Shown: one piece after another, positions 1 to 46,600 of the stretch
Position numbering within the stretch: position 1 is the first letter of the stretch
How the letters are laid out: each line of letters opens with the position of its first letter
Origin: Candidatus Heimdallarchaeota archaeon B3_Heim
GTDB lineage: Archaea; Asgardarchaeota; Heimdallarchaeia; Hodarchaeales; Hodarchaeaceae
Assembly: GCA_003144275.1 (NCBI GenBank)
Contig: NJBF01000010.1
Span: forward strand, 27,861 to 91,860
DNA length: 64,000 nt
Direction: 5' to 3'
Translations under genes and position numbers: made by a program
Notes under the pieces: model-generated
What the model was told of the DNA's origin: nothing
The model's input: the letters and a program-made list of their open reading frames with translations, nothing else
Database searches by the model: none

Positions 1-209
1 TTTGAATAAATTCTGAATTAATAATTTTCCAGTTAAAACTATTCCCTTCTCATCCCAATAGGAAGTAAGCAATTGAATTTATTCAATTTTTGATAAATCT
101 ACTCTAGGTACGAATTGGATTTCACATTTTTCCTTCTGGAAATATGGTGTAATATTTAAGGAACTGAGACTCTAATATATCAGACCCCAATTTGAAATGG
201 AGATAAACT

Positions 210-1424
210 ATGTCGGATGAAGATGATAAGAAGTCTTCTCCCCAGGATAGCCCAGATTATACTTCCATACTTGAGAAACAAATAGAATCAGATATTACCG
301 CCATGGAAATGGAAGAATTCTATTTAAAGGCACAAGTGGATCTAGAAAATGCGCTAACTGATGGTGGTGATTTTCTTCACATTCTAGAAGATGCCTACTC
401 CCATTCCCATACAACAGAGGAGGAAGAACAGAAGAAATTCGAACAATTTGGGTTATTTCACTCTCAAAAAACTGAAGAAATTGTAATGTTAACATGTTTC
501 AAGGATTCTGGACGTCCTTTATTTGAGATTTGTCTCTCAGATAAGGCTAGCTGCCAAACTTCCTTGAGTTTTATTTTAAATGCTATGAAAAATTACGTTC
601 GATATAAACTTGGGGAACTCATTGAAGAATTATCCTTGGAATCTCAAACAATTCATTTCTTTGTGATCGAGGAGAAATACATAATTTCAATTGTCACAAC
701 AAAACAAATCACTAGAGACAGAATCGGACAACTCGCAGTACAGATTGTTACGATCATGAAACGGTACTCCGATGAGCGATTACGGGCAAGTACTGACTTT
801 AAACAAGAAGTACTAAAAACAATAGACGGTTTTCAAGCTTCTTTTGTTAAAGAACACCATACACTTAAAATAATTCTAATCGGAGACGGTGCAGTCGGGA
901 AAACATCGATTAGAAGACAATATCTGGGAGAAGGGTTCAGGAATGATTATCAGATGACCATAGGAGCTGATTTAGCAAGTAAAGAGTCACCTGTTTTATA
1001 TTCCGGTGGAAGGCAAGTCAAATACTTAATTTGGGATCTTGCTGGTCAGCCTCGGTTTGAAGGAGTCCGAAAAGCTTATTATATGTCCGCTATGGGAGCT
1101 ATTGTGGTTTTTGATACCACTCGTGTTGAGAGTTTTCAAAACACTGTTGGGTGGATGAATGAATTTTGGAAACTTAATGGTAGGGGACCAGTTCCTATTA
1201 TTATATTAGGAAATAAAGCGGATTTACGTGATGAAGGGGTAATGGGTGTTTCTGATGCAAAAGCTAGAAAATTTGCTAGTACACTCTCTCATGTGGCTAA
1301 ACAATATAGGGGTTTTGACATTCATTATCTCCCAACAAGTGCGAAAACAGGTTTAAATATCAATTTAGCATTTGAGTTATTGGGAGAGGCAGTAATGGAC
1401 TTTTTTGAATCAGTAAAGAAATGA
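210..1424 (+). CDS. Rab/Ras-like small GTPase with an N-terminal roadblock/longin-like extension of about 200 aa
   Basis: All five G motifs are present in the C-terminal half: G1 GDGAVGKTS, switch-I YQMTIGADL (Rab-type TIGxDF), G3 WDLAGQPRF, G4 GNKADL, G5 TSAKTG. The N-terminal 200 aa have an alternating beta/alpha pattern (EIVMLTCFKDSGRPLFEICL...) that resembles a roadblock/longin fold. Confidence 0.75.
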   Translation: MSDEDDKKSSPQDSPDYTSILEKQIESDITAMEMEEFYLKAQVDLENALTDGGDFLHILEDAYSHSHTTEEEEQKKFEQFGLFHSQKTEEIVMLTCFKDSGRPLFEICLSDKASCQTSLSFILNAMKNYVRYKLGELIEELSLESQTIHFFVIEEKYIISIVTTKQITRDRIGQLAVQIVTIMKRYSDERLRASTDFKQEVLKTIDGFQASFVKEHHTLKIILIGDGAVGKTSIRRQYLGEGFRNDYQMTIGADLASKESPVLYSGGRQVKYLIWDLAGQPRFEGVRKAYYMSAMGAIVVFDTTRVESFQNTVGWMNEFWKLNGRGPVPIIILGNKADLRDEGVMGVSDAKARKFASTLSHVAKQYRGFDIHYLPTSAKTGLNINLAFELLGEAVMDFFESVKK

Positions 1425-1616: not shown

Positions 1617-2360
1617 GTGAAATTAATGGATAGAGACTTTATATTAGCGAGAGAGGCACAATTAACATATTCTAATAATGCTGCATCGGGATTCAATCCA
1701 GTAGGAGAATCTCTTGTTCGTTGGCAAGGAACATTAACTTATACAACAAACAGGGGAAGGAATATGTTCACATTTGAGATTTTCCTCCCAGAGTACTTTC
1801 CCAATGTACCTCCAGTTGTAACTGCAATTGGGTGGATGGATCATCCAAATATTGATAAAGATGGATTTATTCAGTTACGGATTCTGGATAATTGGCGAGC
1901 GGAATTTCATCTCTACCAGGTGATTATTGCTTTAAAAAATCTCATGTCTCGTGTACCACCAACCCCACGCGGAGAAACAGCTAAGTCAGTACGCGATACT
2001 ATGGTGAGAATAACTGAACCAGCAATTGAAAACAGAGATTCTAGATCAGCTGCAGAAACAAAAGCATTACGTACAGAATTAACTGCGAAGAATGCTCAAT
2101 TAACTGCAAAGGATGAAGAATTGGCCAGATTAAGAGCTAGGTCCATGATGAGCTCCGAGGAGTCATCAAAGACTCTGAGAATGAAAGTTACCGATCAACA
2201 AGTGCTAGAATCTGAACGAATTGCCATTTCTGATCTCCTATCATCATTAGAAGATCGATATACTGCTGGTGAGATCTCAATCTTTGAATATTCACGTTTA
2301 TACAAGAAATATACCAAAGAGCTTTATTTACTCCGGAAACAGTTAGAATACTTGAGCTAG
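1617..2360 (+). CDS. ESCRT-I Vps23/TSG101-like protein: UEV (catalytically inactive E2 fold) domain plus a C-terminal coiled coil
   Basis: The N-terminal ~120 aa follow the TSG101 UEV layout (beta-hairpin 'tongue', conserved ...YFPNVPPVV...HPNIDKDGFIQLRILDNW... segment, no catalytic Cys). A long heptad coiled coil follows (TELTAKNAQLTAKDEELARLRAR). The gene sits in the ESCRT cluster. Confidence 0.55.
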   Translation: MKLMDRDFILAREAQLTYSNNAASGFNPVGESLVRWQGTLTYTTNRGRNMFTFEIFLPEYFPNVPPVVTAIGWMDHPNIDKDGFIQLRILDNWRAEFHLYQVIIALKNLMSRVPPTPRGETAKSVRDTMVRITEPAIENRDSRSAAETKALRTELTAKNAQLTAKDEELARLRARSMMSSEESSKTLRMKVTDQQVLESERIAISDLLSSLEDRYTAGEISIFEYSRLYKKYTKELYLLRKQLEYLS

Positions 2361-2369
2361 GTAAAAACA

Positions 2370-2990
2370 ATGTCATTTCCTCAAAACTTATCACACAGAT
2401 GGGATCTAGAAGCCCGATTATTTGCGAATATTGGGACTCTCGATTTAATTTCACGTACTTATGATCGTGGAGAGATCGATTCGAGTACATATCATAAACA
2501 GCATAGAACCCTTCTAACTAGTATTATAGAAACACGTGCAGAGTTAGAACAGTATAATTTTGATGTTGATAGATTTATTGAAGAAGAAGGAATTAGCCAA
2601 CTTTTCCCTTCGGGTCTTTCAAAACTCAAAATGACTGAAGGAGCCGGTGATAATGCCTATAGTCGAATTGATTATTCAAGCATAAAGAAACTTCCAACAA
2701 TTGCTGCGGAGTTTGTAGCAAATGCGATTGAATTACTAGATCTTCTACATTTAGAATCAATCGCAACTGTTGATCGAGTGTTACCCTATCTTGATGAAAT
2801 TCACGATATCTTAGTTAGAGTACCAATGTATGGAAATGATCATTGGGTAACACAGGACATAAATCAGTGGATTAACTGGATGGATAAACAAAAACCAGGA
2901 CAATTATTGAAAAACAAGGAGATTAAGAAATTAGAATTACAAGGTTCTCGCTGGCTTTCTGACTTCAGAAGGGAACTAAAAAATCTATAA
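2370..2990 (+). CDS. putative ESCRT-I Vps28-like helical protein
   Basis: 206 aa, predicted all-helical, starts 10 bp downstream of the UEV gene on the same strand. Size and position match Asgard Vps28 homologues. No diagnostic motif was recognised. Confidence 0.35.
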   Translation: MSFPQNLSHRWDLEARLFANIGTLDLISRTYDRGEIDSSTYHKQHRTLLTSIIETRAELEQYNFDVDRFIEEEGISQLFPSGLSKLKMTEGAGDNAYSRIDYSSIKKLPTIAAEFVANAIELLDLLHLESIATVDRVLPYLDEIHDILVRVPMYGNDHWVTQDINQWINWMDKQKPGQLLKNKEIKKLELQGSRWLSDFRRELKNL

Positions 2991-2999
2991 GAATCGTTC

Positions 3000-4346
3000 T
3001 TATAAAAGATTAGTTTTACCAGTTCTTATAAGCAGCTCTGTCCTTTCTTCAGCAATTTTCGCTAATTCAAATTCAAATTGTTTCAAGAGTTCGAAATATT
3101 CACGACCCGCTACTTTTTTACGGCCTTCTTTTAGTTCCTGTAAGGCTCGTTTTGATGCAAGTTCATGAATGCGCAAGTCTCGTAGTCTTTCCTCTAAAAA
3201 ACCATTAACAAAATCTGGGATATTCTCTGGACTCTTACTTGGAGGCTTATTGGAGGAAGATGGGGTACTTTTATGGTTCTGAAAATTTAATGCTGCAAGG
3301 ATTTTTTCCTGATAAATTTCCGAAGACCAATCACGGAATGGTTCATTGATATACAAGTCACTTGGACGACCTAGATAACTCAACTTCAGTGAATTGAATA
3401 TCCGAATAAGATTTTGAGCATCAGACTGTATGACAAAATCTCGTTTAATAGCAGTTATTAAAAGCTTATCCCGCTTTAAAAATCCAGAGTTCTTTTTTTG
3501 TACATCCATTAGCGCTTTGGGAGAGAATTCATCACAAATGATAGTTTTATGGCTTAAAACATTAGTCCTCTTTTTCTGAAGTAATACAATCCTATCCGTT
3601 GTAATAATTAAATCAATAGTAGTCTTCCTAAAGCTATCATTATTGAGATCTAAATTTGAAAAATAGCCAATACCCAATTCACCTGGGATTAAGACGAAAA
3701 TATCGAGACATCGGGCTAGGTGTTTTCGCGTTTCATCAAATAAATCACATTTTTTCTCTACTTGTTCTATAAGGGCGGAGATAGTTTCAAGTTTCGATAC
3801 AACCGTCTGATCAAAGCTCGCTATATGTTTTTGAAATAGAGAGATTTGCAAAGATGAGTTACGAAAAGAATTCTCCGATATTGGGTGACGTACTACATTA
3901 TGGTAGATTCTTTGGAGCTTTGAAGCATATTCCTGAAATTCATTCAAAGTAAAATTTTCAATTTTCTTTGTCTCTAGAAAGATTTTATCAATCAGATTGC
4001 CAGGAATGAGAAATTGTTTGCGAAAGGAACGTAATCTTGACTCCAATTGGCCAGTTCGTTTTAAGAGGATAACAGGACGATATCCTACGTGCTTGAGAGA
4101 TCGTTTAAGGACAAAAATTTCTTCTAATAAGTCCGCTTTTCCATTTTTAATGTGGTCAAATGCTTCAATATTTGGTGATCCACAGGAACACTTGAGTTGG
4201 GAACCAGTCATAAGAGATCGTGTTGCGCATTGTTGACAAAAAGTAGCACCGCAATCTAAACACTTGTGTACCTCCGAAGAAACGAGTGCTGAACCACAAA
4301 AGGAACAGTAACCCGTCGACTCAGAAGAAGACGAACTAAGACCCAA
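3000..4346 (-). CDS. zinc-ribbon protein with a long helical/PH-like C-terminal region, unknown function
   Basis: The N-terminus carries two Cys4 zinc ribbons (CSFCGS...CLDCGATFCQQC...CSCGSP). The remainder is helical with a beta-rich middle segment. It is convergent with the Vps28-like gene inside the ESCRT locus. Confidence 0.5.
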   Translation of the reverse strand: MGLSSSSSESTGYCSFCGSALVSSEVHKCLDCGATFCQQCATRSLMTGSQLKCSCGSPNIEAFDHIKNGKADLLEEIFVLKRSLKHVGYRPVILLKRTGQLESRLRSFRKQFLIPGNLIDKIFLETKKIENFTLNEFQEYASKLQRIYHNVVRHPISENSFRNSSLQISLFQKHIASFDQTVVSKLETISALIEQVEKKCDLFDETRKHLARCLDIFVLIPGELGIGYFSNLDLNNDSFRKTTIDLIITTDRIVLLQKKRTNVLSHKTIICDEFSPKALMDVQKKNSGFLKRDKLLITAIKRDFVIQSDAQNLIRIFNSLKLSYLGRPSDLYINEPFRDWSSEIYQEKILAALNFQNHKSTPSSSNKPPSKSPENIPDFVNGFLEERLRDLRIHELASKRALQELKEGRKKVAGREYFELLKQFEFELAKIAEERTELLIRTGKTNLL

Positions 4347-4687: not shown

Positions 4688-5407
4688 ATGGGCCTTAGAC
4701 GTATAGAAGAGAAAATAACTCAGGAAGCGGCAATGAAGGTAAAGGGTAGTCAATTGGCCCTCTTGTCTCTCAATGAGATGAGTAAAAAGATAAGAAATTT
4801 ACACAAAGAACTTCAGAAGCTAGAATCTCAATATAAATCTGACATTAAGAAGAATCCCGACCTAGCCCAGAAGGTTATGAAACTAAGGGAGGAGCTAGGA
4901 CTTCCTCTTGCAATTGGAATATATGATGTAGGTAAAAAACCTTCATTCAAATCACGACTGCAGGGAAATGATGAATATATTAACTATTTAGGACTAAGAA
5001 TTATAGAGATTGGTAAACAGATACGGAATCATACAGGGGGTATCTTAAGCGTATCAGAATTAATCTTGAAACTTAATGATGAAAGTAAAGGAATTGTGGT
5101 TTCTATTTCAGACGTCAATAACGCTTTGGAACTTTTAACTTCGAATGGATTAATTCATCAGATACGAACACTCGTAGGAATGAAAATTATCGAGTTTATT
5201 GACCCAGAACTGACACAAGATCATCAACGTATACTTGAGTTGGCAGCACAGGCTAATGGCCAGCTTTCAATGACTGAATTAGTTCAAAAATCAACTTGGA
5301 CAATAGAACGAGTAGAACGATCTATAGAAGTTTTGATCAATAAAAAAGTAGCAATCAAATCTAATACCTTAGATGGCATATTAATATCATTTCCAGGTGT
5401 AGGATAG
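4688..5407 (+). CDS. ESCRT-II Vps22/EAP30-like protein (tandem winged-helix)
   Basis: 239 aa with an N-terminal helical hairpin followed by two winged-helix-like units, which is the EAP30 size and architecture. It lies directly upstream of two ESCRT-III genes and Vps4. Confidence 0.5.
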   Translation: MGLRRIEEKITQEAAMKVKGSQLALLSLNEMSKKIRNLHKELQKLESQYKSDIKKNPDLAQKVMKLREELGLPLAIGIYDVGKKPSFKSRLQGNDEYINYLGLRIIEIGKQIRNHTGGILSVSELILKLNDESKGIVVSISDVNNALELLTSNGLIHQIRTLVGMKIIEFIDPELTQDHQRILELAAQANGQLSMTELVQKSTWTIERVERSIEVLINKKVAIKSNTLDGILISFPGVG

Positions 5408-5606: not shown

Positions 5607-6287
5607 TTGAAAATACAAGTGAAACGACTTAAAGGGTTTTTAACGGGATCGAAACCATCTTCATCAACTGAAACAAAAGCGAAGTTAAAAAGAACCATAA
5701 ATCAAATGGAAATAAAGGTAAAAAACTATTCAAGGCAATCTGATGAGCAATATGAGTTAGCACGTCGACTGTTAAAATCTGGGAACAAACCTGGAGCTCA
5801 ACAAGCTCTGAAGCGACGTGAGCTATATTTGACCCAGACAACGAACACTCATAGCAAGATAGCAAACTTACAACGTATCATTGAAACGCTTGATATTTCT
5901 GCAGATAACGTTACTTTAACAGAGACACTAGCGCAGGCACAAATTGCAATTGATAGCAATGTTGAAGCAGCTTCGCCTGAAAGGACAGAAGAAGTAATGA
6001 TGTCCTTAGAGGATTCCATAGAAATGGTTTCAGATATGGAGGACTCTCTTACAGATACCTCGATAACTGAAATCGGAATGGATGTTGAAGCAGATGATCG
6101 AATATCTATGCAAATGGCGGAATTAGAAGCGGAATTATCATCGGGTTCTCTTCCAGCAAGTGAAACAAGTGTTTCTGCAACACCTAGTTCCCCAATATCA
6201 GAAAACACCGCTGGAAAAAAACGTGAAGCAGACAAAAAGAAATTAGATGAGATGCGGAAACAGATTGAAGAAGGTTTGAGGTCATAA
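5607..6287 (+). CDS. ESCRT-III / Snf7-family protein (Vps20/32/60-like)
   Basis: Basic N-terminal helical hairpin (KAKLKRTINQMEIKVKNY...ARRLLKSGNKPGAQQALKRRELY) and an acidic C-terminal half (EDSIEMVSDMEDSL...ELEAELSS), as in Snf7/CHMP proteins. Tandem with a second paralogue and Vps4. Confidence 0.6.
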   Translation: MKIQVKRLKGFLTGSKPSSSTETKAKLKRTINQMEIKVKNYSRQSDEQYELARRLLKSGNKPGAQQALKRRELYLTQTTNTHSKIANLQRIIETLDISADNVTLTETLAQAQIAIDSNVEAASPERTEEVMMSLEDSIEMVSDMEDSLTDTSITEIGMDVEADDRISMQMAELEAELSSGSLPASETSVSATPSSPISENTAGKKREADKKKLDEMRKQIEEGLRS

Positions 6288-6289
6288 AC

Positions 6290-6904
6290 ATGGTTTTTGA
6301 TAAATTTGGTCAATGGCTTAAAGGTGGAGGAAGTGGAGCCAGTTCTACACGGAAGTGGATCGTTCGACTTCGAATGGTTGAAAAACGAATGTTACGTCAA
6401 CGGAAAAAATTGCTAAAAGAAGAAAAAAATATGTTAAAAGAAGTTGAGAAATCCATAGAAGATGGTGATATGTCAACTGCTAGACTATTAGCAAAGGATG
6501 TAGCCAAAAACCGTAATATGGCCCGCGCATGCCAACAAATGGCTAGCAGGGTAAAAGGGATCAAGTTTAAGTTAGAACAAGCAGCTGCTACACAAGCAAT
6601 TGGAAAGGATTTGAAAGGACTCGTACGCACACTTCATACAATGAATGCCGAATTAAAAATTCCACAGCTTGAAGGTGTTCTTCAACAAATGGAAATCGAA
6701 ACAGAGCGAGTTGATATTGCAACAGAAGCAATGGATGAAGGATTTGAGATGATGACAACCGATGGAGAAGAAGATGAAGTGGTTGAAAAAATCCTTGGAG
6801 AGATAAGCGCGTCTAAAGCAGCTACAGCTGATTTTGGTCTTCCTTCTCCCGATATACGGTCCCAAGAATTACAAAAAGAACTAGAAAAAATAAAGAAAAG
6901 CTGA
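6290..6904 (+). CDS. ESCRT-III / Snf7-family protein (Vps2/24/46-like) with a C-terminal MIM-like helix
   Basis: Shows the CHMP-like polarity (basic N-terminal, acidic C-terminal) and a C-terminal amphipathic helix (DIRSQELQKELEKIKK) resembling a MIM1 motif that would bind the Vps4 MIT domain. Start is 2 bp after the preceding ESCRT-III stop. Confidence 0.65.
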   Translation: MVFDKFGQWLKGGGSGASSTRKWIVRLRMVEKRMLRQRKKLLKEEKNMLKEVEKSIEDGDMSTARLLAKDVAKNRNMARACQQMASRVKGIKFKLEQAAATQAIGKDLKGLVRTLHTMNAELKIPQLEGVLQQMEIETERVDIATEAMDEGFEMMTTDGEEDEVVEKILGEISASKAATADFGLPSPDIRSQELQKELEKIKKS

Positions 6905-6956: not shown

Positions 6957-8099
6957 ATGGGTTCTCCTTTATTTGAAGCAGCTAAAAAGAATGCTAGCTT
7001 GGCTTATAAGCTGGATCAAAGTGGACAGACTCAGCAAGCAGTCAAATATTATGTATCTGCAGCTGAACAGTTACAAAAACTCATTAATTTTACTGACGAT
7101 TCAAATATGAAAAATCTCTATTATCACAAAGCAATGGAATATATTTTGCGTGTGAAGGAAATTCGAGGAATAATCGAACCATCTGAAACCCCGACCCCTT
7201 CTTCCGCTCCATCCCCAAAAAGTGACGAAATTTCCGATGCTATTTCAAGTGTTATCGTTCGAGAGAAACCAAACGTGAAGTGGGAAGACGTTGCAGGAAT
7301 GGAGGAGGCTAAACGTGCATTAAGAGAAGCCGTCATCTTACCTATGTCTCGACCTGATTTATTCAAAGGTGCACGTAAACCATGGAAAGGAATTTTGATG
7401 TATGGTCCCCCTGGTTGTGGGAAAACTTATCTATGTAAGGCGGTAGCTTCTGAAGTGGAATCAACCTTTTTTTCAGTAAGTGCAGCGAATTTAATAAGTA
7501 AATGGTTGGGGGAGTCAGAAAAGCTCGTAAATGAACTCTATGAAAGAGCAGTAGAAGAAGCCCCGTCCATAATTTTCTTTGACGAAATCGATGCTTTGGC
7601 AGGAACACGAGGCGGGAGTTCTGAAGGAGAGGCAATGCGAAGAGTGAAAACACAACTATTACAAGCAGTAGAAGGTTTTGCTACTGGTGATGAACTACTG
7701 GTCACTATAGGAGCAACGAATACGCCTTGGGATATCGATGCTGCAATGCGTAGACGTTTTGAACGTCGTGTTTATGTAACACTCCCAGCAAGGGAAGCAA
7801 GGGAGGTAATGTTTTCAATTCATACAAAAGGGATTCCCATGGGTGCAGATGTTGATTTTAAAGCATTAGCTGAAATTACAGGCGGATATACGGCTGCAGA
7901 TATTGCTTTAGTGTGTCGTGAATCCTTGATGCAACCGATTCGTGAACTGGATGCAGAAGGGGCCCTAACCGATATGACTGTACAAGTACGAGCTCCGAAA
8001 GCAGTTGATTTTCATAATGCCATGATGCATATTCGTCCCTCAGTCGCTCCAGATGAGCTTGCGCGATATGATAAATGGCGCGATAAATTTGGAGGGTAG
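6957..8099 (+). CDS. vps4: Vps4-like AAA+ ATPase (MIT domain + AAA cassette)
   Basis: N-terminal three-helix MIT-like domain (AAKKNASLAYKLDQSGQTQQAVKYYVSAAEQLQKL), Walker A GPPGCGKTY, Walker B IIFFDEIDAL, second region of homology ATNTPWDIDAAMRRRF, and a C-terminal Vps4 helix. Confidence 0.9.
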   Translation: MGSPLFEAAKKNASLAYKLDQSGQTQQAVKYYVSAAEQLQKLINFTDDSNMKNLYYHKAMEYILRVKEIRGIIEPSETPTPSSAPSPKSDEISDAISSVIVREKPNVKWEDVAGMEEAKRALREAVILPMSRPDLFKGARKPWKGILMYGPPGCGKTYLCKAVASEVESTFFSVSAANLISKWLGESEKLVNELYERAVEEAPSIIFFDEIDALAGTRGGSSEGEAMRRVKTQLLQAVEGFATGDELLVTIGATNTPWDIDAAMRRRFERRVYVTLPAREAREVMFSIHTKGIPMGADVDFKALAEITGGYTAADIALVCRESLMQPIRELDAEGALTDMTVQVRAPKAVDFHNAMMHIRPSVAPDELARYDKWRDKFGG

Positions 8100-8141: not shown

Positions 8142-8915
8142 ATGGCCGAATTACAACGAAAAAAGGAAAAGGTTGACAAGAAAAAAACTTCAGTTGATGT
8201 ACTTGAAGATGTACTTCAGCAAGTAACAGCAGACAAACCGAAATCAACTAAGATAGAAGCTCCAAAAATCAAACAAAAACCTTTAACGAATACTTTACCT
8301 TATTCCCAGTTTCATAAATCGCAATCAAAGGTCGAACAAACGATAACTGTGAAGTCCGAACGAATTTCATTAGCTGAGCTAAAACCTGGTACCGTTCATC
8401 CTAATGTAAAACCGATTTTACCTGGTTGGGTTACAAAGCCATGGCGATGGATGATTCCAGAGGATCCTGAATTAAAACAGCAGTGGTTGCTTACCTGGGG
8501 GGATTTCTTACTTGCATTTGCACGTGTGTTAAACCAACATATACTCGATCTCCAGGAAGTTAGCCTAGTCTACCCATTTCAAAATGGGGTACTTCATAAA
8601 AAGCTGTCAATTCCACAGTTAAAAGCTATTTCTGAGTATTTAATTGAGCAAGAAAATGCCTCATGGTGGGATACAGACGAAACACAACTTAGGGTATACT
8701 GGAAGACCCTCAATTCTTTTGCCGAGGAAATTTTCAATTATTCCTTCCAAAACGGATTTGAAATGATCACACTTTATGATATGGTCAAAATGAATCAGTC
8801 TTGGTCATCCCTTCCACCTAAGGATCTTGCTATTATTATGAAACTCATGGTAAAGTCAAAGAAAGCTACATGGGCGGACTCAGAACAGAAAACAATAGAA
8901 TTTGTTTTTTTTTAA
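8142..8915 (+). CDS. hypothetical protein at the end of the ESCRT locus (possible Vps25-like winged-helix protein)
   Basis: 257 aa, same strand and 42 bp downstream of vps4. Basic N-terminal tail followed by mixed alpha/beta. No motif recognised; the Vps25 suggestion rests on synteny only. Confidence 0.3.
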   Translation: MAELQRKKEKVDKKKTSVDVLEDVLQQVTADKPKSTKIEAPKIKQKPLTNTLPYSQFHKSQSKVEQTITVKSERISLAELKPGTVHPNVKPILPGWVTKPWRWMIPEDPELKQQWLLTWGDFLLAFARVLNQHILDLQEVSLVYPFQNGVLHKKLSIPQLKAISEYLIEQENASWWDTDETQLRVYWKTLNSFAEEIFNYSFQNGFEMITLYDMVKMNQSWSSLPPKDLAIIMKLMVKSKKATWADSEQKTIEFVFF

Positions 8916-9026: not shown

Positions 9027-9680
9027 ATGACAACCCCTATACAAGAAGAAGAATTGCTCACGCCTCTAGAAGATTATTTAAAAGCAGGTGTCCACATTGG
9101 AACATCTAGCGGAATGAAAAGCATGGATTGGGCGATCTATCGTACTCGAAACGATGGGCTTTACGTTTTAGATGTCCATAAAACTGATGATCGTATACGT
9201 ACTGCAGCAAAATTCCTTGCACGTCAAGATACGTCACGAGTGGCTGCATGTAGTGTCAGGGCATACGGAATTTATCCTGTAGAAATGTTCTGCAAAGTGA
9301 CAGGAGCAGAGCCTATTACTGGAAGATTTATTCCGGGAATTTTCACGAATCCAAGCATCAAAGGAAGATATAATTTTATCGAACCCACTAGCATATTAAT
9401 TACTGATCCTCACTTCGATCATCAAGCTCTGAAAGAAGCTTATCGAATGGGAATCCCTGTTATTTCTCTTGTTGACACTGATAACACAATAAGTAATATT
9501 GATCTTGCTATTCCTTGTAACAACAAAGGGCGTAATTCCTTAGCCATGATATTCTGGTTATTAACAAAGGAAATTCTTAGAGAACGTGGTGAATTAACAC
9601 CAGAAAAAGATGCTCAATTAAGGGTAGAATTATTTAGAGCCCCACGAGGTCGACGACCCCTGAGCGATGATGGATTTTAA
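9027..9680 (+). CDS. rps2: 30S ribosomal protein uS2
   Basis: Archaeal S2 signature segments YLKAGVHIGT...DGLYVLDVHKTDDRIRTAAKFL...LITDPHFDHQALKEAYRMGIPVISLVDTDN. Confidence 0.85.
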   Translation: MTTPIQEEELLTPLEDYLKAGVHIGTSSGMKSMDWAIYRTRNDGLYVLDVHKTDDRIRTAAKFLARQDTSRVAACSVRAYGIYPVEMFCKVTGAEPITGRFIPGIFTNPSIKGRYNFIEPTSILITDPHFDHQALKEAYRMGIPVISLVDTDNTISNIDLAIPCNNKGRNSLAMIFWLLTKEILRERGELTPEKDAQLRVELFRAPRGRRPLSDDGF

Positions 9681-10029: not shown

Positions 10030-10941
10030 GTGGTCAAACAAATAGGTATCCTAAGTAGAAATAAAGACTATTTCCCAACAACACGATTACTTAAGGATAT
10101 CAACCAAAGAAATGATATCTCTGGTGTTTTTCTATCAACACAATATGTTTTTCCATTAATTAGTTCTTCAGGTGCTGATGCTCGATTTGCGAACCAATCC
10201 TTACTCCCACTCTTGGGGATTGTTCCACGTATTGGAAGATCTCAAACAGATTTGGGTATATTATGTTTGAAGCATTTTGAATTAATGAATATTCCAAGTA
10301 CTCTTTCAGCAGAGGCTCTTTTTCTTTCACGAGATAAGTTTCGCTGCTATCAGGCGTTATCAAAGATAAAAGGTGTACAATTACCTAGAACTATATTAAT
10401 TAATAACTCATTTCAGGCCGACCAGTTGTTAAAAGCTTTTAAATTTCCAGTGGTCATAAAACTACCTGACGCGACCCGAGGAAGTGGAAGTATGTTAGCG
10501 CCTAATCCAAAAACAGCAGAAGAGATCATTGAATCACTATTTATGCGATCTTCTGAACCAATTATGATCCAAGAATATCTTCGATCTGGGCCTCTACATA
10601 CATCTCCTCCGTCTGCGGATATCCGAGTAATCTACATAGGAAAGGAGATCATTGGCAGCATGAAACGAATAGCCCCAACTGGAGAATGGCGAACAAATTT
10701 TGCCCTTGGAGCTAATTGTGAAGCATATCAGTTGTTGGCTGAAGACGAAGAGCTAGTACATCAAATAGCAGAAAGAATTGGAATTGAAGTAGCTGGAATA
10801 GATCTTTTTCCTACCCAAAATGGGTTTTACATCCTTGAGGTAAACGCCTGTCCAGGATGGAAAGCATTTGAAATGGCCAATCCCAAGATAAACGTTGCTC
10901 AAAAAATAATTGATTATCTACTGAGAAAAATACGTCGGTAG
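10030..10941 (+). CDS. ATP-grasp family ligase (RimK/LysX/CofF-like)
   Basis: C-terminal ATP-grasp signatures (VVIKLPDATRGSGSM..., IMIQEYL, DIRVIYIGKEIIG, AGIDLF...FYILEVNACPGW). Start codon not verified. Confidence 0.7.
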   Translation: MVKQIGILSRNKDYFPTTRLLKDINQRNDISGVFLSTQYVFPLISSSGADARFANQSLLPLLGIVPRIGRSQTDLGILCLKHFELMNIPSTLSAEALFLSRDKFRCYQALSKIKGVQLPRTILINNSFQADQLLKAFKFPVVIKLPDATRGSGSMLAPNPKTAEEIIESLFMRSSEPIMIQEYLRSGPLHTSPPSADIRVIYIGKEIIGSMKRIAPTGEWRTNFALGANCEAYQLLAEDEELVHQIAERIGIEVAGIDLFPTQNGFYILEVNACPGWKAFEMANPKINVAQKIIDYLLRKIRR

Positions 10942-11039: not shown

Positions 11040-12005
11040 ATGGTGAGCAGTACTAACGATTTTACCAAGCTAACAATAGCAAAAGAGGTACGAGGTCGAC
11101 TTCAAGAAGAATTTCCCAGTTTAATGGCACTAGCTGCGACTCCTCCTGCGGAAGTAATGAAACGCTGTGAAGTAAGTAAGTCTTCCGCGGAACGGGCTGT
11201 CAATCAAGCTCGAAAAATCATCGGGATGAATCAACCGACTACCGCAGCATCATTATTAAAGAAAGAGTTAGATAGACCAAGAATTACGACCTCTTCACAG
11301 TCTCTAGATGATATATTGGGAGGAGGTATAACAGTAGGATCCATAACGGAGTTTAGTGGGGCATTTGCGACAGGAAAAACTCAGATATCATTCCAGTTAT
11401 GTTTAAACGTTCAAAGATCAGTGGAGGATGGCGGGTTAGCAGGAAAAGCATTATTTTTAGATACTGAAAACACTTTTGCACCAGCTCGAGTAGCAGAGAT
11501 GGCATATTCCTACACAGATGATCCAAGTGAATATTTACAGAATATCTTAGTGAGTCGAGCCTATAATACAGATCATCAGATACAGCTCATAGATAAGGCA
11601 GACAAAATACTTGAGAAGAATAATATACGACTAATAATAATTGATTCTATGGCCTCACATTTTCGTGCTGAATTTCCCGGTAAAGAGAATCTTCCACGGC
11701 GTCAACAGACACTAATGGCCCATGCAGAAACCCTCCAAAGATTAGCTGAATCATACAATTTGGCTATAATCACAACTAATCAAATCCTCAGTAATCCTGA
11801 TAATTTATTTTCGGGGGCGAATAATTTAGAACCTGCATTGGGATTCGCTTGGGGTCATAGACCAACTCATAGAATTTTGTTACGAAAATCACGAGGGACG
11901 GCACGTATTGCACGAATATTTGATTCTCCCGAACTGGCAGAACGAGAAGCAGTATACCATATTACACCTCAAGGTATACGTGATGGCCCTCCTCTTGATT
12001 ACTAA
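11040..12005 (+). CDS. radA: DNA repair and recombination protein RadA
   Basis: N-terminal HhH-like domain then a RecA/Rad51 core: Walker A GAFATGKTQ, Walker B LIIIDSM, L1/L2-like loops. 321 aa. Confidence 0.85.
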   Translation: MVSSTNDFTKLTIAKEVRGRLQEEFPSLMALAATPPAEVMKRCEVSKSSAERAVNQARKIIGMNQPTTAASLLKKELDRPRITTSSQSLDDILGGGITVGSITEFSGAFATGKTQISFQLCLNVQRSVEDGGLAGKALFLDTENTFAPARVAEMAYSYTDDPSEYLQNILVSRAYNTDHQIQLIDKADKILEKNNIRLIIIDSMASHFRAEFPGKENLPRRQQTLMAHAETLQRLAESYNLAIITTNQILSNPDNLFSGANNLEPALGFAWGHRPTHRILLRKSRGTARIARIFDSPELAEREAVYHITPQGIRDGPPLDY

Positions 12006-21113: not shown

Positions 21114-22658
21114 TTATATCTCAATTTCAACGGTAGGCTTTTTTTTCTGTTCTGTTTTTGATGCCAGTCGCGCTCGTGCCTGAACCCAGGTACGTAATGC
21201 CGTAATATCTTCCTTCATCAATCGGGATAGTGGAACCATATTTTCCAAGGCATTCATGATATCTGTGGTTTCGACTTCACGATCCTCAGAAAAAGCATCG
21301 AACATAGCTGTGATGAGGGTTTGTTCTATTTCTGCTCCGGAATAGCCTTTACTTAACCCAACCAGTGTTCTCATATCAAATTTTTCTGTTTCACGCCCTC
21401 TTTTCTTAATATGGATAGAGAAGATATCTTCACGTTCCTTTGGGGAAGGTAAGTCTAAAAAGAAGATTTCATCAAATCTACCTTTTCTCATGAGTTCAGG
21501 AGGCAATCGCTGGACATTATTGGCGGTTGCGATTACAAATACTGGTTTTTTCTTCTCTTGAAGCCAAGTAATAAAAGTCCCAAACACTCTGCTTGTTGTT
21601 CCTGCATCCGTAAGATTACTGGACTGTACTCCCGCAAATCCTTTCTCTATTTCATCAATCCATAGAATAGAAGGAGAAACAGATTCAGCTGTTTTTATAG
21701 CGTTCCGAATATTCTGTTCACTCTCACCAACAACTCCTCCAAACACCTTTCCTACATCAAATCGTAGTAAGGGTAATTTCCATAATGAAGCTACTGCTTG
21801 GGCAGTAAGCGATTTTCCTGTTCCAGGAATGCCAATCAACATCAGACCTGAGGGAAAGGGTAATCCATACTCTCTTGCTTTTTCAGTAAAGCCTCGATTA
21901 CGGATGGTTAACCATTCTTTTAAGTGTTCTAATCCTCCAATATTATCAAAGTGTTCGCTAGAATGATAATATTCCAGTATTCCTGATTTACGAATAATTT
22001 GTTCTTTTTCTTGGATTATAATTGCAGGGTCAAACCGTTTTACTTCGACAAGTGATTTGGCAAAGACATTTTCTGCCTCATCCACAGTAAGTCCAAGAGC
22101 TGATTTTAGGACAGCTTCCCTTTCTTCCTCGGTTAAACTGATATCAACTCTAGGATTCATTTTTAATGGTTCAATAATTCCTTCTAGAACAGTATCCAAT
22201 AGCTCTAAGGTTGGAAAATCAAAGTCGACAACATTAATCATTTTTTCTAATTCAATTGGTACTTCCAAAACTGGAGAAACAAGAATACATGTTTTTTTCA
22301 AATTATTAAGGTGAATTTTGAGGTCACGAAGTTTTCGAATAACCACTGGATCTTTCATAAAAGGATGAAAGTCTTTTAACATGAAGATCGCGGGCCTCGG
22401 GTAATCGGTAATGAATGTTAACGCAGCAAAAGGATCCACTGCTTCCCCATCCAATTTTTTACCTAGAAAATCCGAAAACCCTTCTGTCGTACTCCAAATG
22501 ATCAATTGTTTCTCTGATTTTACAGCAAGAGTATTCAACATAACAGCCACCCTTTCCTCTTCCCAAGTGGTGATATAGATGAGAGAGTAACGAGCACGAA
22601 TTAAAATATCAACCTTTTTTTGTTGATCCTCACTAACCTTTTTCATAGAGGTCACCAA
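21114..22658 (-). CDS. Ycf46-like AAA+ ATPase
   Basis: 514 aa with a ~250-aa N-terminal domain, then Walker A GIPGTGKSL and Walker B ILWIDEIEKGF, with sensor-1/arginine-finger regions. Length and layout match the Ycf46 family as I recall it. Confidence 0.7.
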   Translation of the reverse strand: MVTSMKKVSEDQQKKVDILIRARYSLIYITTWEEERVAVMLNTLAVKSEKQLIIWSTTEGFSDFLGKKLDGEAVDPFAALTFITDYPRPAIFMLKDFHPFMKDPVVIRKLRDLKIHLNNLKKTCILVSPVLEVPIELEKMINVVDFDFPTLELLDTVLEGIIEPLKMNPRVDISLTEEEREAVLKSALGLTVDEAENVFAKSLVEVKRFDPAIIIQEKEQIIRKSGILEYYHSSEHFDNIGGLEHLKEWLTIRNRGFTEKAREYGLPFPSGLMLIGIPGTGKSLTAQAVASLWKLPLLRFDVGKVFGGVVGESEQNIRNAIKTAESVSPSILWIDEIEKGFAGVQSSNLTDAGTTSRVFGTFITWLQEKKKPVFVIATANNVQRLPPELMRKGRFDEIFFLDLPSPKEREDIFSIHIKKRGRETEKFDMRTLVGLSKGYSGAEIEQTLITAMFDAFSEDREVETTDIMNALENMVPLSRLMKEDITALRTWVQARARLASKTEQKKKPTVEIEI

Positions 22659-43614: not shown

Positions 43615-46600
43615 ATGGCAACCCGAAACGAAAAACTGGTTCGGATAGAGCTTCCCTCTACTTCTGGGGTAGAAGTTGAGATTAGAGAAAGCAGAGATCG
43701 GTACGTACTGAATTTTTTCCAGAATGATAGACAAATAAATACCGCTTCTCTCTCTCAAAACAAGCTTAATCAGGATAGGCTAGTGGATCTCTTAAGTGAG
43801 GCCGGAGTGGAATTTTTTAGTTTTTCTGCAATATTTGAAATCGCTGATCTACTTGTGAATACAATTAAAGATGAATTTCAAGCTTTTTCCATAGAAGATG
43901 AACCTGCTTCAACTCCAATAACGCATGATGTTAATGATGTGACTGAAAAGTTCGGTATACTAACTGAAGATGTACTAGAAGAGGAGGATGAGATTGTTGA
44001 AGATACAGTCTCAGCAACATCAAGTAAGATTCTGACAATTCCTCCTGGAGATAAAGAACTAAAAAAGATCAAAATGCTACACTCGAAATCAGGATTTGCC
44101 ACAATATATTATACTCCCGAAGGAAAATTTGCTATAGTCTTATCTCGCAATGATGAATTGTTACTGAGAAAAGTCTATTCTAAAGACGATGTAAATCAAG
44201 ACAAGGTTGTAGAATTAATCAGTGAATCAGGAATTGATTTTCTTTCCTTTTCTGCAATATATGATTCTGCAGAGCAAATTGAATCACTAATCTTAAATCC
44301 AGAGAAATTTGAATCAGAAGATACTGTCTCAATTCCTCAAATGGACACTATAGTTGATGTCGCTGATCCTTCACCTATTTTAAAGTCGAAATCAGCAGCT
44401 ACCTCAGAACAAGATGAAGTGACACTCGTTGATTTATCCGATTTTGATACGTCTGAATTCAATAAGGCTGATGATTTTGATAAATTTATCAACAAGGTTA
44501 AAGAAGTCGTAGAAGTAGGACAACCTCTTCCTGTTAAGGAAGTGGAGATTGCTCATTCGGGTGGAGTGGATTGTATTATCCTCAGAAAATTTGATGATTG
44601 GTTTTTACGTTTTCGCAAGTCTGATGGTTCAATATCTGCCCCTACAGAAATAAAAATTGATCAGGATGAAATCGCTCGTCTGATAAATCAGGAAATCCCC
44701 CAAATTTCTTTTAGTTACTTGTATGATGCTTCAGAATTGATTTTTCAAACTATTGGTGGTTTAGCAACAAAGCCAATGGACCAAATCATCATTAATGTGG
44801 CTGTTGGTCACTTCTTAAGAATTATTGAACAGAATGAAGCAAAGGGGAATCTTAAAGCCGCATCGAAAATCACTGAGGTTTTGCTTAAGCGTTTTCGTAA
44901 AGAAAACAATTCTAAGGGTATTCTACGATTTGGGAGAAAACTTGTAAAGTCTCTGATAGATCAAGGAAAAGATTCCAAAGTTGTGAAGCTCCAATCTGAA
45001 TTGATCTCAGATCTACTCAAAATTGATTTGGAATCATCTGTTGAATTCGTATTTGAATCTATAGAGATGCTGGCCGATCAAAATAAACATCTTAATGCAG
45101 CTAATTTATGTGATTTAGTTTTGGATTACTACTTGTCTGAAAAAATAGTACCTGATTCAATATCAACAATCTTACTCTTAGCTAAAAAACAAGCGGAGTA
45201 TTATAAGCATGCTCGACTACCAGTAGTAATGTGGGAGAATGCTCTTCGTTATGCCCACTTTGCCCTAAAAGAGATAGGAGCAAGTGGGGACACATTCTCA
45301 AAGGAACAAAGAGATGGATTCTTGGAGGACATTATTTTCTTAGTTGACTCTGCACTGGGAGTACAAGAAGAACGTAAAGCTAATTTTGAAATTCTGAGCA
45401 CGCTTGAAGAGACAACACAATTATTAAAAGAGATTCAAGAAAAATCCCATTATCAAAGATACGTTAATCGATTAATCCTCACCTTGGAGACTCAGGGAAA
45501 GAAGGAAAAAGCTTTAGAAATCACATTGGAAGCTTCAAAAGCACTAATGAATTCAGAAACATATGTAAAAGCGTGTGAACTTAGTAATCAAGCAATAAAA
45601 TTGTTTTATGAATTGAAAAAGGTTGAAGAAGCTGTTGATTTTAGTCTTGGAGTAGTGAGGGGACTCACTGAATTAGAAGAAATAGAGGCTGCAAAAAATT
45701 ATTTGCAGTTTGTTGAAGATCTCATTAGTAAAGCATACAAAGATAGTGATTCTCGTCGAATAGAAAAACAGCTCGCAATGGGCGATTTACTGGGGAAATT
45801 AGGGATGAAAGATCGCGCTAAATCCTTTATTCAGACCGCTCTTCAAACAATTGCAGATCCTAAGAAAAGGGAGAAAATTGTTCTGAAATATGTAGATGAA
45901 ATGCATGTGAGTCATGCTTTTCTTACCGCTCAAGAGATGATTAATTTAGAATTATCTCGGTTGTTGGAAACAAAGAAAATAAAGGATGTAATAAAATTTT
46001 GTTGCCAATTTATAGACAAATTAAGAGAGTATGGCCAAAGCGATATGATTTTCGAATATATTCGGTACATCTCTAGTTTAATGTTACAGTCAGATCATAG
46101 TGATTATAATTTACTGCAGAAGTTCATAAAAGATCTATTGACAACGAATGAGGTTGATAGAGCGGCGTTAATCTTGGATCAGCTAGTAATCCTCCAAGGT
46201 AAACAAAGTGATTATACGAGAGCAATTGATTCAATAAGTCGTTTTGTTGACCATCTTTTGGAAAGTACTCAAAGAGTCGATCTTGTCCAAAAATACGTTT
46301 TTGAGATTGCTGAAGCTTATAGACGGATGGGAGACGATCAAGGAGCGCTCGAAGTGTTGGTAAAATATCAGGAAGTCCTACTTGATTATTCAGTTGAATT
46401 ATCACAGAAAATTACTGACATCATACTAAAAGAATATGAGGCAAAAGAAGAGTATAAGAAATGTATAGAAATTGTGACTAACATCATTGATAGGCAATTA
46501 GAACAGAACATGTTTCAAGACGCATACATTTTTAGTGTTCAAAATGCTCGTTATATAGAGAGCTCTGGCAGCATTCCTGATGTCATCAAATATCTCGGAA

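Follow-up and report, generated by a model that had tools for sequence, protein, structure and literature searches.

A longin domain fused to a Rab-like GTPase, encoded within the ubiquitin-ESCRT gene cluster of Hodarchaeales

In Asgard archaea, proteins that combine a small GTPase with a longin or roadblock domain are already well documented. In MK-D1, 26 of the 74 GTPases are combined with such domains, roadblock-GTPase and longin-GTPase-roadblock proteins included, and the order 'RB-GTPase' was reported for proteins of the same organism (Tran et al. 2024, PMC10933270). Asgard Arf-like GTPases were described with N-terminal extensions 'such as longin' (Zhu et al. 2025, PMC11914678), and Rag-family GTPases fused to longin were presented in a preprint (Liu et al. 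2020, 10.1101/2020.10.19.343400). The protein analyzed here resembles them in combining, within one chain, a G domain of the Ras superfamily with a domain of this kind. The original prediction, which was made from the DNA alone, had implied that the arrangement was unusual; this view had to be given up, as Asgard longin/roadblock-GTPase fusions are known in both orders (PMC10933270, PMC11914678). Two features of the present protein, a helical segment at aa 31-88 and a fixed place among ubiquitin and ESCRT genes, are unmentioned in the consulted papers on Asgard ESCRT systems and GTPases (among them PMC10933270, PMC11914678 and PMC10936438), which likewise contain neither a GTPase gene in an ESCRT cluster nor the longin-Rab family to which the protein belongs.

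Outside these fusions, the closest described systems differ in domain order or in the number of polypeptides. The Rag/Gtr GTPases (RagA-D, Gtr1/2, and LokiRagO 8yl2 and LokiRagM 9m28 of Lokiarchaeota) carry a Rag-type G domain at the N-terminus and a roadblock domain at the C-terminus, whereas here the order is reversed, as had been predicted, with the longin domain first and a Rab-like G domain second, and the appended domain possesses the extra C-terminal helix (a3) of a longin. Membership in the Rag/Gtr family was rejected on account of this reversed order and of the lack of a Gtr1_RagA Pfam match in the window protein, weak precomputed matches to this profile being present in some homologues. 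In the Rab7/Ypt7 system, the GTPase and the longins of its GEF Mon1-Ccz1 (5ldd, 9rs7), a heterodimer whose subunits have three longin domains each, are separate polypeptides, unlike in the fusion, and the likeness of our protein to Rab7 and to Mon1-Ccz1 is one of score, with small margins over other Rabs and longins, and need not mean orthology. The SRX domain of SRalpha and the Arf-like SRbeta are likewise separate chains, have a role in protein targeting and share no sequence similarity with the fusion. In the MglA/MglB pair, MglB is a separately encoded roadblock protein and MglA uses an intrinsic switch I arginine; an arginine of this type was considered for the fusion and rejected, since R244 is variable across homologues.

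The window, i.e., the whole stretch of 64,000 nucleotides that was analyzed, opens within a ubiquitin-ESCRT gene cluster of a member of the Hodarchaeales. The fusion gene starts with an ATG preceded by a GGAG about 8 nt upstream, and its product is named in public records only as a 'Rab family GTPase'; its closest relatives, from Candidatus Hodarchaeales/Hodarchaeota genomes and with an identity of up to 92%, bear the same name. The features of the gene and of its downstream neighbors are collected in Table 1.

Table 1. Coordinates of the fusion gene, its segments and motifs, and the downstream ESCRT genes
Feature	Window position (nt)	Protein position (aa)	Strand	Remarks
Longin + Rab-like GTPase fusion gene, complete	210..1424		+	404 aa plus stop codon
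N-terminal tail	210..299	1-30	+	Variable, charged, probably disordered
Conserved helical segment	300..473	31-88	+	Motifs EMEEFYLKvqVDLE..., D..L
Longin domain (by model)	474..845	89-212	+	b1 b2 a1 b3 b4 b5 a2 a3
Linker (KEHHTL region)	846..863	213-218	+	Joins longin helix a3 to G-domain strand b1
Rab-like G domain (by sequence)	864..1403	219-398	+	Contains G1, switch I, G3, G4, G5
G1, GDGAVGKT	882-905	225-232	+	
Switch I, YQMTIGADL	948-974	247-255	+	Includes T250
G3, DLAGQ	1035-1049	276-280	+	Catalytic Gln280
G4, NKAD	1212-1223	335-338	+	
G5, SAK	1338-1346	377-379	+	
C-terminal tail	1404..1421	399-404	+	Short, basic, without cysteine
UEV/E2-like Vps23 homologue (ESCRT-I)	1617..2360		+	Pfam UQ_con E 7.8e-14, UEV E 7.8e-5
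Vps28 homologue (ESCRT-I)	2370..2990		+	Pfam VPS28 E 8.7e-12
448-aa zinc-ribbon protein	3000..4346		-	Weak zinc-ribbon Pfam matches only; kept in all loci
EAP30/Vps22-like	4688-5407		+	
ESCRT-III, two genes	5607-6287, 6290-6904		+	
Vps4	6957-8099		+	
Vps25	8142-8915		+	

The prediction that the complete G1-G5 set lies in the C-terminal half only was confirmed: all five motifs fall within aa 225-379. G1, T250 of switch I, G3, G4 and G5 are invariant in the 70 members of the family, and the switch regions are near-invariant. The Pfam Ras profile (PF00071) matched aa 220-395 with an E-value of 5.1e-36 and 124 bits (cut-off 21.6), against competing scores of 93 bits for Roc and 40 bits for Arf, and the NCBIfam profile small_GTP (TIGR00231) matched with an E-value of 1.1e-18. 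Among the best 60 PDB sequence matches only Rabs were present, Ypt7/Rab7 ranking first (3.8e-28) and a Thorarchaeota Rab second. In the alignment with Ypt7/Rab7 the switch I, which had been recognized as Rab-type from the DNA, is nearly identical (YQMTIGADL vs. ykATIGADf), and there is an insertion of about 9 residues before b6. The RabF1-F5 family motifs were compared by eye with the consensus reported by Pereira-Leal and Seabra; four pairs resemble each other (IGADL/IGVDF, KYLIW/KLQIW, YYMSA/YYRGA, VVFDTT/LVYDIT) and one does so more weakly (RFEGVR/RFRSIT). Judged by its sequence, the G domain is a member of the Ras superfamily and of its Rab-like branch. The Arf consensus at G3 is D.GGQ, as opposed to DLAGQ here, and the published Asgard fusions were described for the Rag/Arf-like class, whereas this G domain scores far better as Ras than as Arf. 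Conservation is high (92 of 189 columns at ≥ 95% over aa 216-404, C-terminal tail included, in 70 sequences), and the entire stretch from a1 to switch I is among the strongly conserved columns. Since the P-loop, the switch I Thr, the catalytic Gln, NKxD and SAK are all intact, the domain should bind and hydrolyze GTP as a Rab does. No prenylation motif (CC, CXC) was found, as cysteine occurs among the last 6 residues in none of the 70 members; these residues comprise on average 2.6 K/R vs. 0.2 D/E. In sequence, the G domain is thus Rab-like, yet without the lipid anchor of its eukaryotic counterparts.

For the N-terminal 200 aa, the original prediction had proposed a roadblock/longin module with a regulator-like fold, to be recognized by structure prediction and by profile searches against the roadblock, longin and MglB families. 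The profile searches brought no support: aa 1-217 gave no Pfam or NCBIfam match at E ≤ 1, and the Longin, Sybindin, Sedlin_N, Clat_adaptor_s, SRX and Fuz_longin_1 profiles indicated no membership for the window protein. When 17 N-terminal homologues were searched against Pfam, one marginal match to Fuz_longin_1 (E 0.083) was obtained and nothing else. A PDB sequence-profile search with the N-terminal family alignment yielded nothing at E ≤ 10, and an exhaustive HMMER search of the N-terminal profile against 1.84 billion representatives recovered the longin-Rab family itself and two further proteins, P0005 (WD40-like) and P0007 (Thr/Ser-rich repeats), both rejected as repeat-protein artefacts.

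Structure prediction was more informative. While AF2 run on the single full-length sequence gave an unusable model (pLDDT 43), an alignment of 17 sequences covering aa 30-218, with homologues drawn from 12 species genomes, resulted in a model of this region with a mean pLDDT of 74 and of approximately 87-91 in the core (aa 89-212). Its elements (in model numbering, to which 29 has to be added) are E62-69, E74-79, H83-102, E111-113, E117-124, E128-135, H140-154, and H166-183, i.e., the order b1-b2-a1-b3-b4-b5-a2-a3 of a longin domain, in which five strands form a sheet flanked by a1 on one side and by a2/a3 on the other. The core superposes on solved longin domains, with structural comparison values of 12.8 for Sec22b and AP-3 mu, 12.7 for TRAPPC4, 12.5 for TRAPPC2, 12.0 for AP-2 mu, 11.5 for Ykt6, 11.4 for Mon1, 10.5 for SRalpha SRX and DENND1A, 10.3 for a Lokiarchaeota longin (8yqg), and 10.1 for Ccz1; roadblock-type domains were lower (MP1/LAMTOR3 9.1, Rag C-terminal domains 7.7-8.1, MglB 7.5, Asgard roadblocks 7.4-7.8). 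Foldseek retrieved chains of Mon1-Ccz1, CPLANE/Fuzzy-Inturned, adaptor and COPI complexes with E-values between 1e-4 and 1e-3, and TRAPP chains marginally above 1e-3. Because the element order, the higher longin values and Foldseek agree, the model identifies aa 89-212 as a longin domain. A roadblock/LC7 identity (as in MglB, LAMTOR and the Rag C-terminal domain) was rejected, as neither the a-b-b-a-b-b-b order, with its N-terminal helix on the sheet, nor the absence of a second C-terminal helix applies to this region, and the Robl_LC7 profile gave no match. Of the predicted module, the longin alternative has thus been borne out by the model and the roadblock one has not; the regulator-like fold is present but spans about 124 aa instead of 200, being preceded by a probably disordered tail and by helices of low confidence. 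The latter, at aa 31-88, were modelled as three helices with pLDDT 50-57. They were considered as a candidate steadiness-box hairpin, of the kind shared by Vps23, Vps28 and Znr_PH_CC_SB, through which the protein might plug into ESCRT-I; comparison of aa 30-90 with the steadiness-box regions of the neighbors (hhalign) reached a probability of at most 2.4%, but the positive controls failed as well, as those regions missed each other too.

Purifying selection is strong on both domains and clear for the N-terminal part, as far as the pattern of conservation among homologues can tell. In the longin domain conservation is moderate (18 of 127 columns at ≥ 95% in 70 sequences), with invariant residues in the b1-b2 hairpin (C96, G101, F105), in helix a1 and its exit (N128, Y129, L134, G135, E136, L137, E139), and in b3-b4 (L143, E144, I148, H149, F151), so that a1, the following loop and the strands form the conserved stretch NY..., LGEL.E.L.LE..IH.F. 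A further pair, R169-D170 at the start of a2, is near-invariant. In the helical segment, 9 of 58 columns reach ≥ 95% (motifs EEF..K..V.LE and D..L), whereas aa 1-30 have no such column and differ in length and sequence among homologues. Helix a3 of the longin runs nearly straight into b1 of the G domain, leaving a linker of about 6 residues.

The longin-Rab family comprises about 70 distinct full-length sequences (clusters from the full-length profile search together with genome loci), all of them Hodarchaeales-like. In the profile search approximately 60 two-domain clusters scored at 581-744 bits, followed by a drop to about 260 bits, where the single-domain Asgard Rab-like GTPases start; a word-indexed search with the N-terminal region alone under-reports the family (3-4 matches vs. 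~60). As these single-domain proteins, at ~50% identity, are the closest relatives of the G domain outside the family, the sequences fit an origin in which an ordinary Rab-like switch of Asgard archaea acquired a longin module. More distant proteins (P0082, P0083, and P0086, with 373-411 aa, and P0006) have the same architecture, and their N-terminal regions aligned with the family longin profile at a probability of 65% (hhalign, E 6e-5, 107 columns).

The ESCRT genes that had been expected next to the fusion gene were confirmed (UEV, Vps28, EAP30, two ESCRT-III, Vps4 and Vps25). The gene order reads E1 (ThiF), a Yip1-domain membrane protein (minus strand), PAP2, longin-Rab, UEV-Vps23, Vps28, the 448-aa zinc-ribbon protein (minus strand), EAP30, the two ESCRT-III genes, Vps4 and Vps25, and genes for a RING finger, an Arf-like GTPase, a KaiC-like ATPase and ubiquitin are located further upstream. 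The longin-Rab gene is therefore enclosed by the ubiquitin-ESCRT block, with the ubiquitin module on one side and ESCRT-I on the other. By position and size, the 448-aa protein fits Znr_PH_CC_SB, which Makarova et al. (PMC10936438) described as a putative component of ESCRT-I, and we infer this assignment tentatively. A survey of related genomes, as proposed with the original prediction, showed the fusion at the same place and in the same gene order in 12 of 12 GTDB species genomes and on six further contigs (L001-L004, L019, L020); contig L018 shows the order only partly, the GTPase gene being followed there by no more than a fragment of UEV. In every core-family locus that shows the downstream neighbor, this neighbor is UEV-Vps23.

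We tentatively favor the reading of the protein as a two-module switch, in which the longin domain would be a permanently attached platform for docking and dimerisation rather than a catalytic GAP, and the Rab-like G domain would make the protein a nucleotide-controlled regulator of the ubiquitin-ESCRT pathway of Hodarchaeales; taken as a whole, we consider it nearly as likely to be right as wrong. When bound to GTP, the protein would bring ESCRT-I (UEV-Vps23, Vps28, Znr_PH_CC_SB) to the membrane or license it there and, as the prenylation site is lacking, membrane contact would be made through partners, possibly also through the short basic C-terminal tail. Longin and roadblock domains have platform roles in the Rag/Gtr GTPases, TRAPP, Mon1-Ccz1 and SRalpha/SRbeta, and helix a1, one of the places where the conserved residues of the longin domain concentrate, is said (Levine 2013) to be the face by which longin and roadblock dimers pair and seat GTPases. 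Dimers of both kinds have been described as platforms with a conserved GTPase orientation (PMC10933270). By analogy, dimerisation of the longin domain is plausible; like GTP-dependent effector binding and the connection to ESCRT, it is something we infer.

The alternatives to this platform and ESCRT-regulator reading differ in how much of it they would overturn. That the fusion is an artefact, i.e., two neighboring genes, one for a longin and one for a GTPase, merged through faulty sequencing or assembly, or an over-extended start codon, is so improbable that it can practically be set aside. One homologue (P0002) is apparently split into products of 70 and 314 aa, but the split is due to a run of N in its contig, and the same unbroken ORF of 370-440 aa recurs throughout some 70 distinct sequences that stem from independent assemblies (NCBI, JGI, ENA, Logan), so the fusion is real; the selection acting on the N-terminal part speaks against an artefact as well. 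A self-regulating GTPase, whose longin domain acts in cis on the attached G domain or in trans on that of the other subunit of a homodimer, is a more serious candidate, be it as a GAP (FLCN/NPRL2/SMCR8-like or MglB-like), a GEF (Mon1-Ccz1/TRAPP-like) or an SRX-like lock of the GTP state. Longin and roadblock are the commonest folds of GTPase regulators, and the structural neighbors include Mon1, Ccz1, TRAPPC4, DENND1A, SRX, FNIP2, NPRL3 and MglB. In GAP-type longins, b2 starts with a GP motif of two directly adjacent residues, next to which a conserved arginine finger is found (PMC12290439; where this finger lies in the fold is our deduction from the description given there). In the fusion, the invariant G101 of the b1-b2 loop is followed by x-P in most members, recalling this motif, but G101-x-P103 is not GP, as x is variable and P103 is conserved in < 80%; the b4-b5 loop, where the finger should be, has no conserved Arg, and although R169-D170 is near-invariant, R169 is at the b5/a2 junction, at the end of the sheet opposite G101 as judged from the fold topology. 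Assignment to the GAP-type longins (FLCN, NPRL2, SMCR8/C9orf72) found no support for the same reasons, R169 being the sole near-invariant Arg. Moreover, the short tether would be attached at the pole of the G domain opposite the switches, as deduced, making contact in cis sterically hard, and the known longin GEFs and GAPs act as dimers with extra elements. The intramolecular GAP/GEF of the original prediction finds no support here; regulation in trans within a dimer may occur, and self-regulation in general we consider improbable.

A further explanation leaves the switch untouched and removes ESCRT: the protein would be a Rab-like GTPase of general trafficking or signalling, equipped with a longin adaptor but without a specific ESCRT link, its gene order being inherited within one archaeal order. 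In these genomes synteny extends over the entire 20-kb region, the flanks with ribosomal protein S2, RimK and a metallo-beta-lactamase being as conserved as the ESCRT genes; background synteny is therefore high, and the adjacency may reflect shared descent and not shared function. In addition, the four distant relatives occur in other contexts (no adjoining ESCRT gene on the short contigs of P0006, P0082, P0083 and P0086), the gene has the appearance of a separate transcription unit, as co-transcription with UEV is not evident across a spacer of ~190 bp with a T-run (nt 1487-1500), and the dozens of multidomain Asgard GTPases are generally not in operons with partners (PMC10933270). Against this, the gene lies inside the block and not at its edge, between E1 and ESCRT-I; its place is kept while the adjoining PAP2 is inverted in some genomes and absent in two, and despite insertions before EAP30 in two others; and all genomes in which the core family was found carry the ubiquitin-ESCRT cluster. 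We regard this explanation as unlikely, though less so than self-regulation. Because of the equally syntenic housekeeping flanks and the four relatives located elsewhere, the functional link of the longin-Rab gene to ESCRT is suggestive only. Far less probable than either, finally, is that the fusion preserves an ancestral unit in which a Rab7-like switch and a longin regulator of the Mon1/Ccz1/Fuzzy type were covalently linked; if it did, a Rab-to-ESCRT control axis, i.e., an endosome-like membrane identity, would be older than eukaryotes.

The protein belongs to a known kind of Asgard fusion, of which a previously unannotated N-terminal domain is now given a fold, and its distinctive feature is its fixed place in the Hodarchaeales ubiquitin-ESCRT cluster. 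Should the ESCRT link fail, it would be one more among many multidomain Asgard GTPases. Hodarchaeales belong to the archaea that are placed nearest to eukaryotes, and in the latter Rab GTPases and their longin-domain regulators define the identity of the membranes on which ESCRT sorting takes place. A Rab-like switch that carries its own longin domain and is encoded between the ubiquitin and ESCRT-I genes is therefore a candidate for GTPase control of ESCRT in archaea, for which the present locus is suggestive.

The UEV-Vps23 gene lies next downstream of the gene for the longin-Rab fusion GTPase, and its listed GTG start (position 1617) is probably 9 nt too early: when the protein encoded in the window is aligned with its homologs from most of the other loci, they match it only from its residue 4 onward (MDRDF...), making the ATG at 1626 the candidate start. 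On the other side of the GTPase gene, among the loci of related Hodarchaeales that carry the same ubiquitin-ESCRT cluster, a PAP2 gene is found directly upstream on the plus strand in the closest relatives of the window (L002, L006, and L007) and on the minus strand in L004, L009-L014, and L017, while L015 and L016 have no PAP2 gene at this position. Plus- and minus-strand PAP2 genes share only ~31% identity. The strand change or loss of PAP2 is local turnover immediately beside a fixed GTPase-UEV junction.

Farther upstream, beyond the portion of the cluster visible in the window, the gene order described for L007 (see table) was repeated in L006 and L011-L017. With the Arf-like GTPase and Yip1 located there, the ubiquitin-ESCRT block contains two small GTPases together with one Yip1-domain membrane protein; in eukaryotes, Yip1 proteins interact with Rabs.

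Genes discussed in the text, in window coordinates unless a locus is named
Feature	Position	Strand	Details
Upstream gene order	L007 3917-6660		RING finger (77 aa), unknown (129 aa), Arf-like GTPase (205 aa), KaiC-like ATPase, ubiquitin; then E1, Yip1, PAP2
Zinc-ribbon protein	3000-4346	-	448 aa; N-terminal zinc ribbon, C-terminal helical region
Vps25-type ESCRT-II subunit	8142-8915	+	PF05871, E 3e-16; after Vps4
Ribosomal protein S2	9027-9680		ends cluster, past Vps25-type gene
RimK	10030-10941		beyond ribosomal protein S2
RadA	11040-12005		beyond RimK
AAA protein	21114-22658	-	514 aa; single AAA domain PF00004, E 5.5e-30
Very large ORF	43615-49212	+	1865 aa

The zinc-ribbon gene is kept between Vps28 and EAP30 in every related locus, and the Pfam matches of its product are weak and restricted to zinc fingers. 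By size and position, this protein fits as a candidate for Znr_PH_CC_SB, a putative ESCRT-I component (Makarova et al. 2024, PMC10936438). Compared with the other genomes, the interval between this gene and EAP30 carries insertions of ~2.6 kb in L013 (14216-16812) and ~1.5 kb in L014 (14195-15670).

Elsewhere in the window, the AAA protein is weakly similar to Vps4 (26% across ~200 aa), its long N-terminal region being without a family match, and the very large ORF had zero Pfam matches at E ≤ 1e-4.

When only the N-terminal region of the GTPase served as query, a word-indexed protein search recovered 3-4 members of the longin-Rab family, vs. ~60 with the full-length profile, so absence from a search of the former kind is weak evidence of rarity. 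Two proteins of 320 aa from metagenomes (P0097 and P0100) are Rab-like GTPases whose G domain is ~50% identical to that of the family, preceded by a differing N-terminal extension (~145 aa, mostly low-complexity by eye) for which no match to the longin region was established. Such a differing extension on a closely related G domain suggests that this G-domain lineage gained N-terminal modules more than once.
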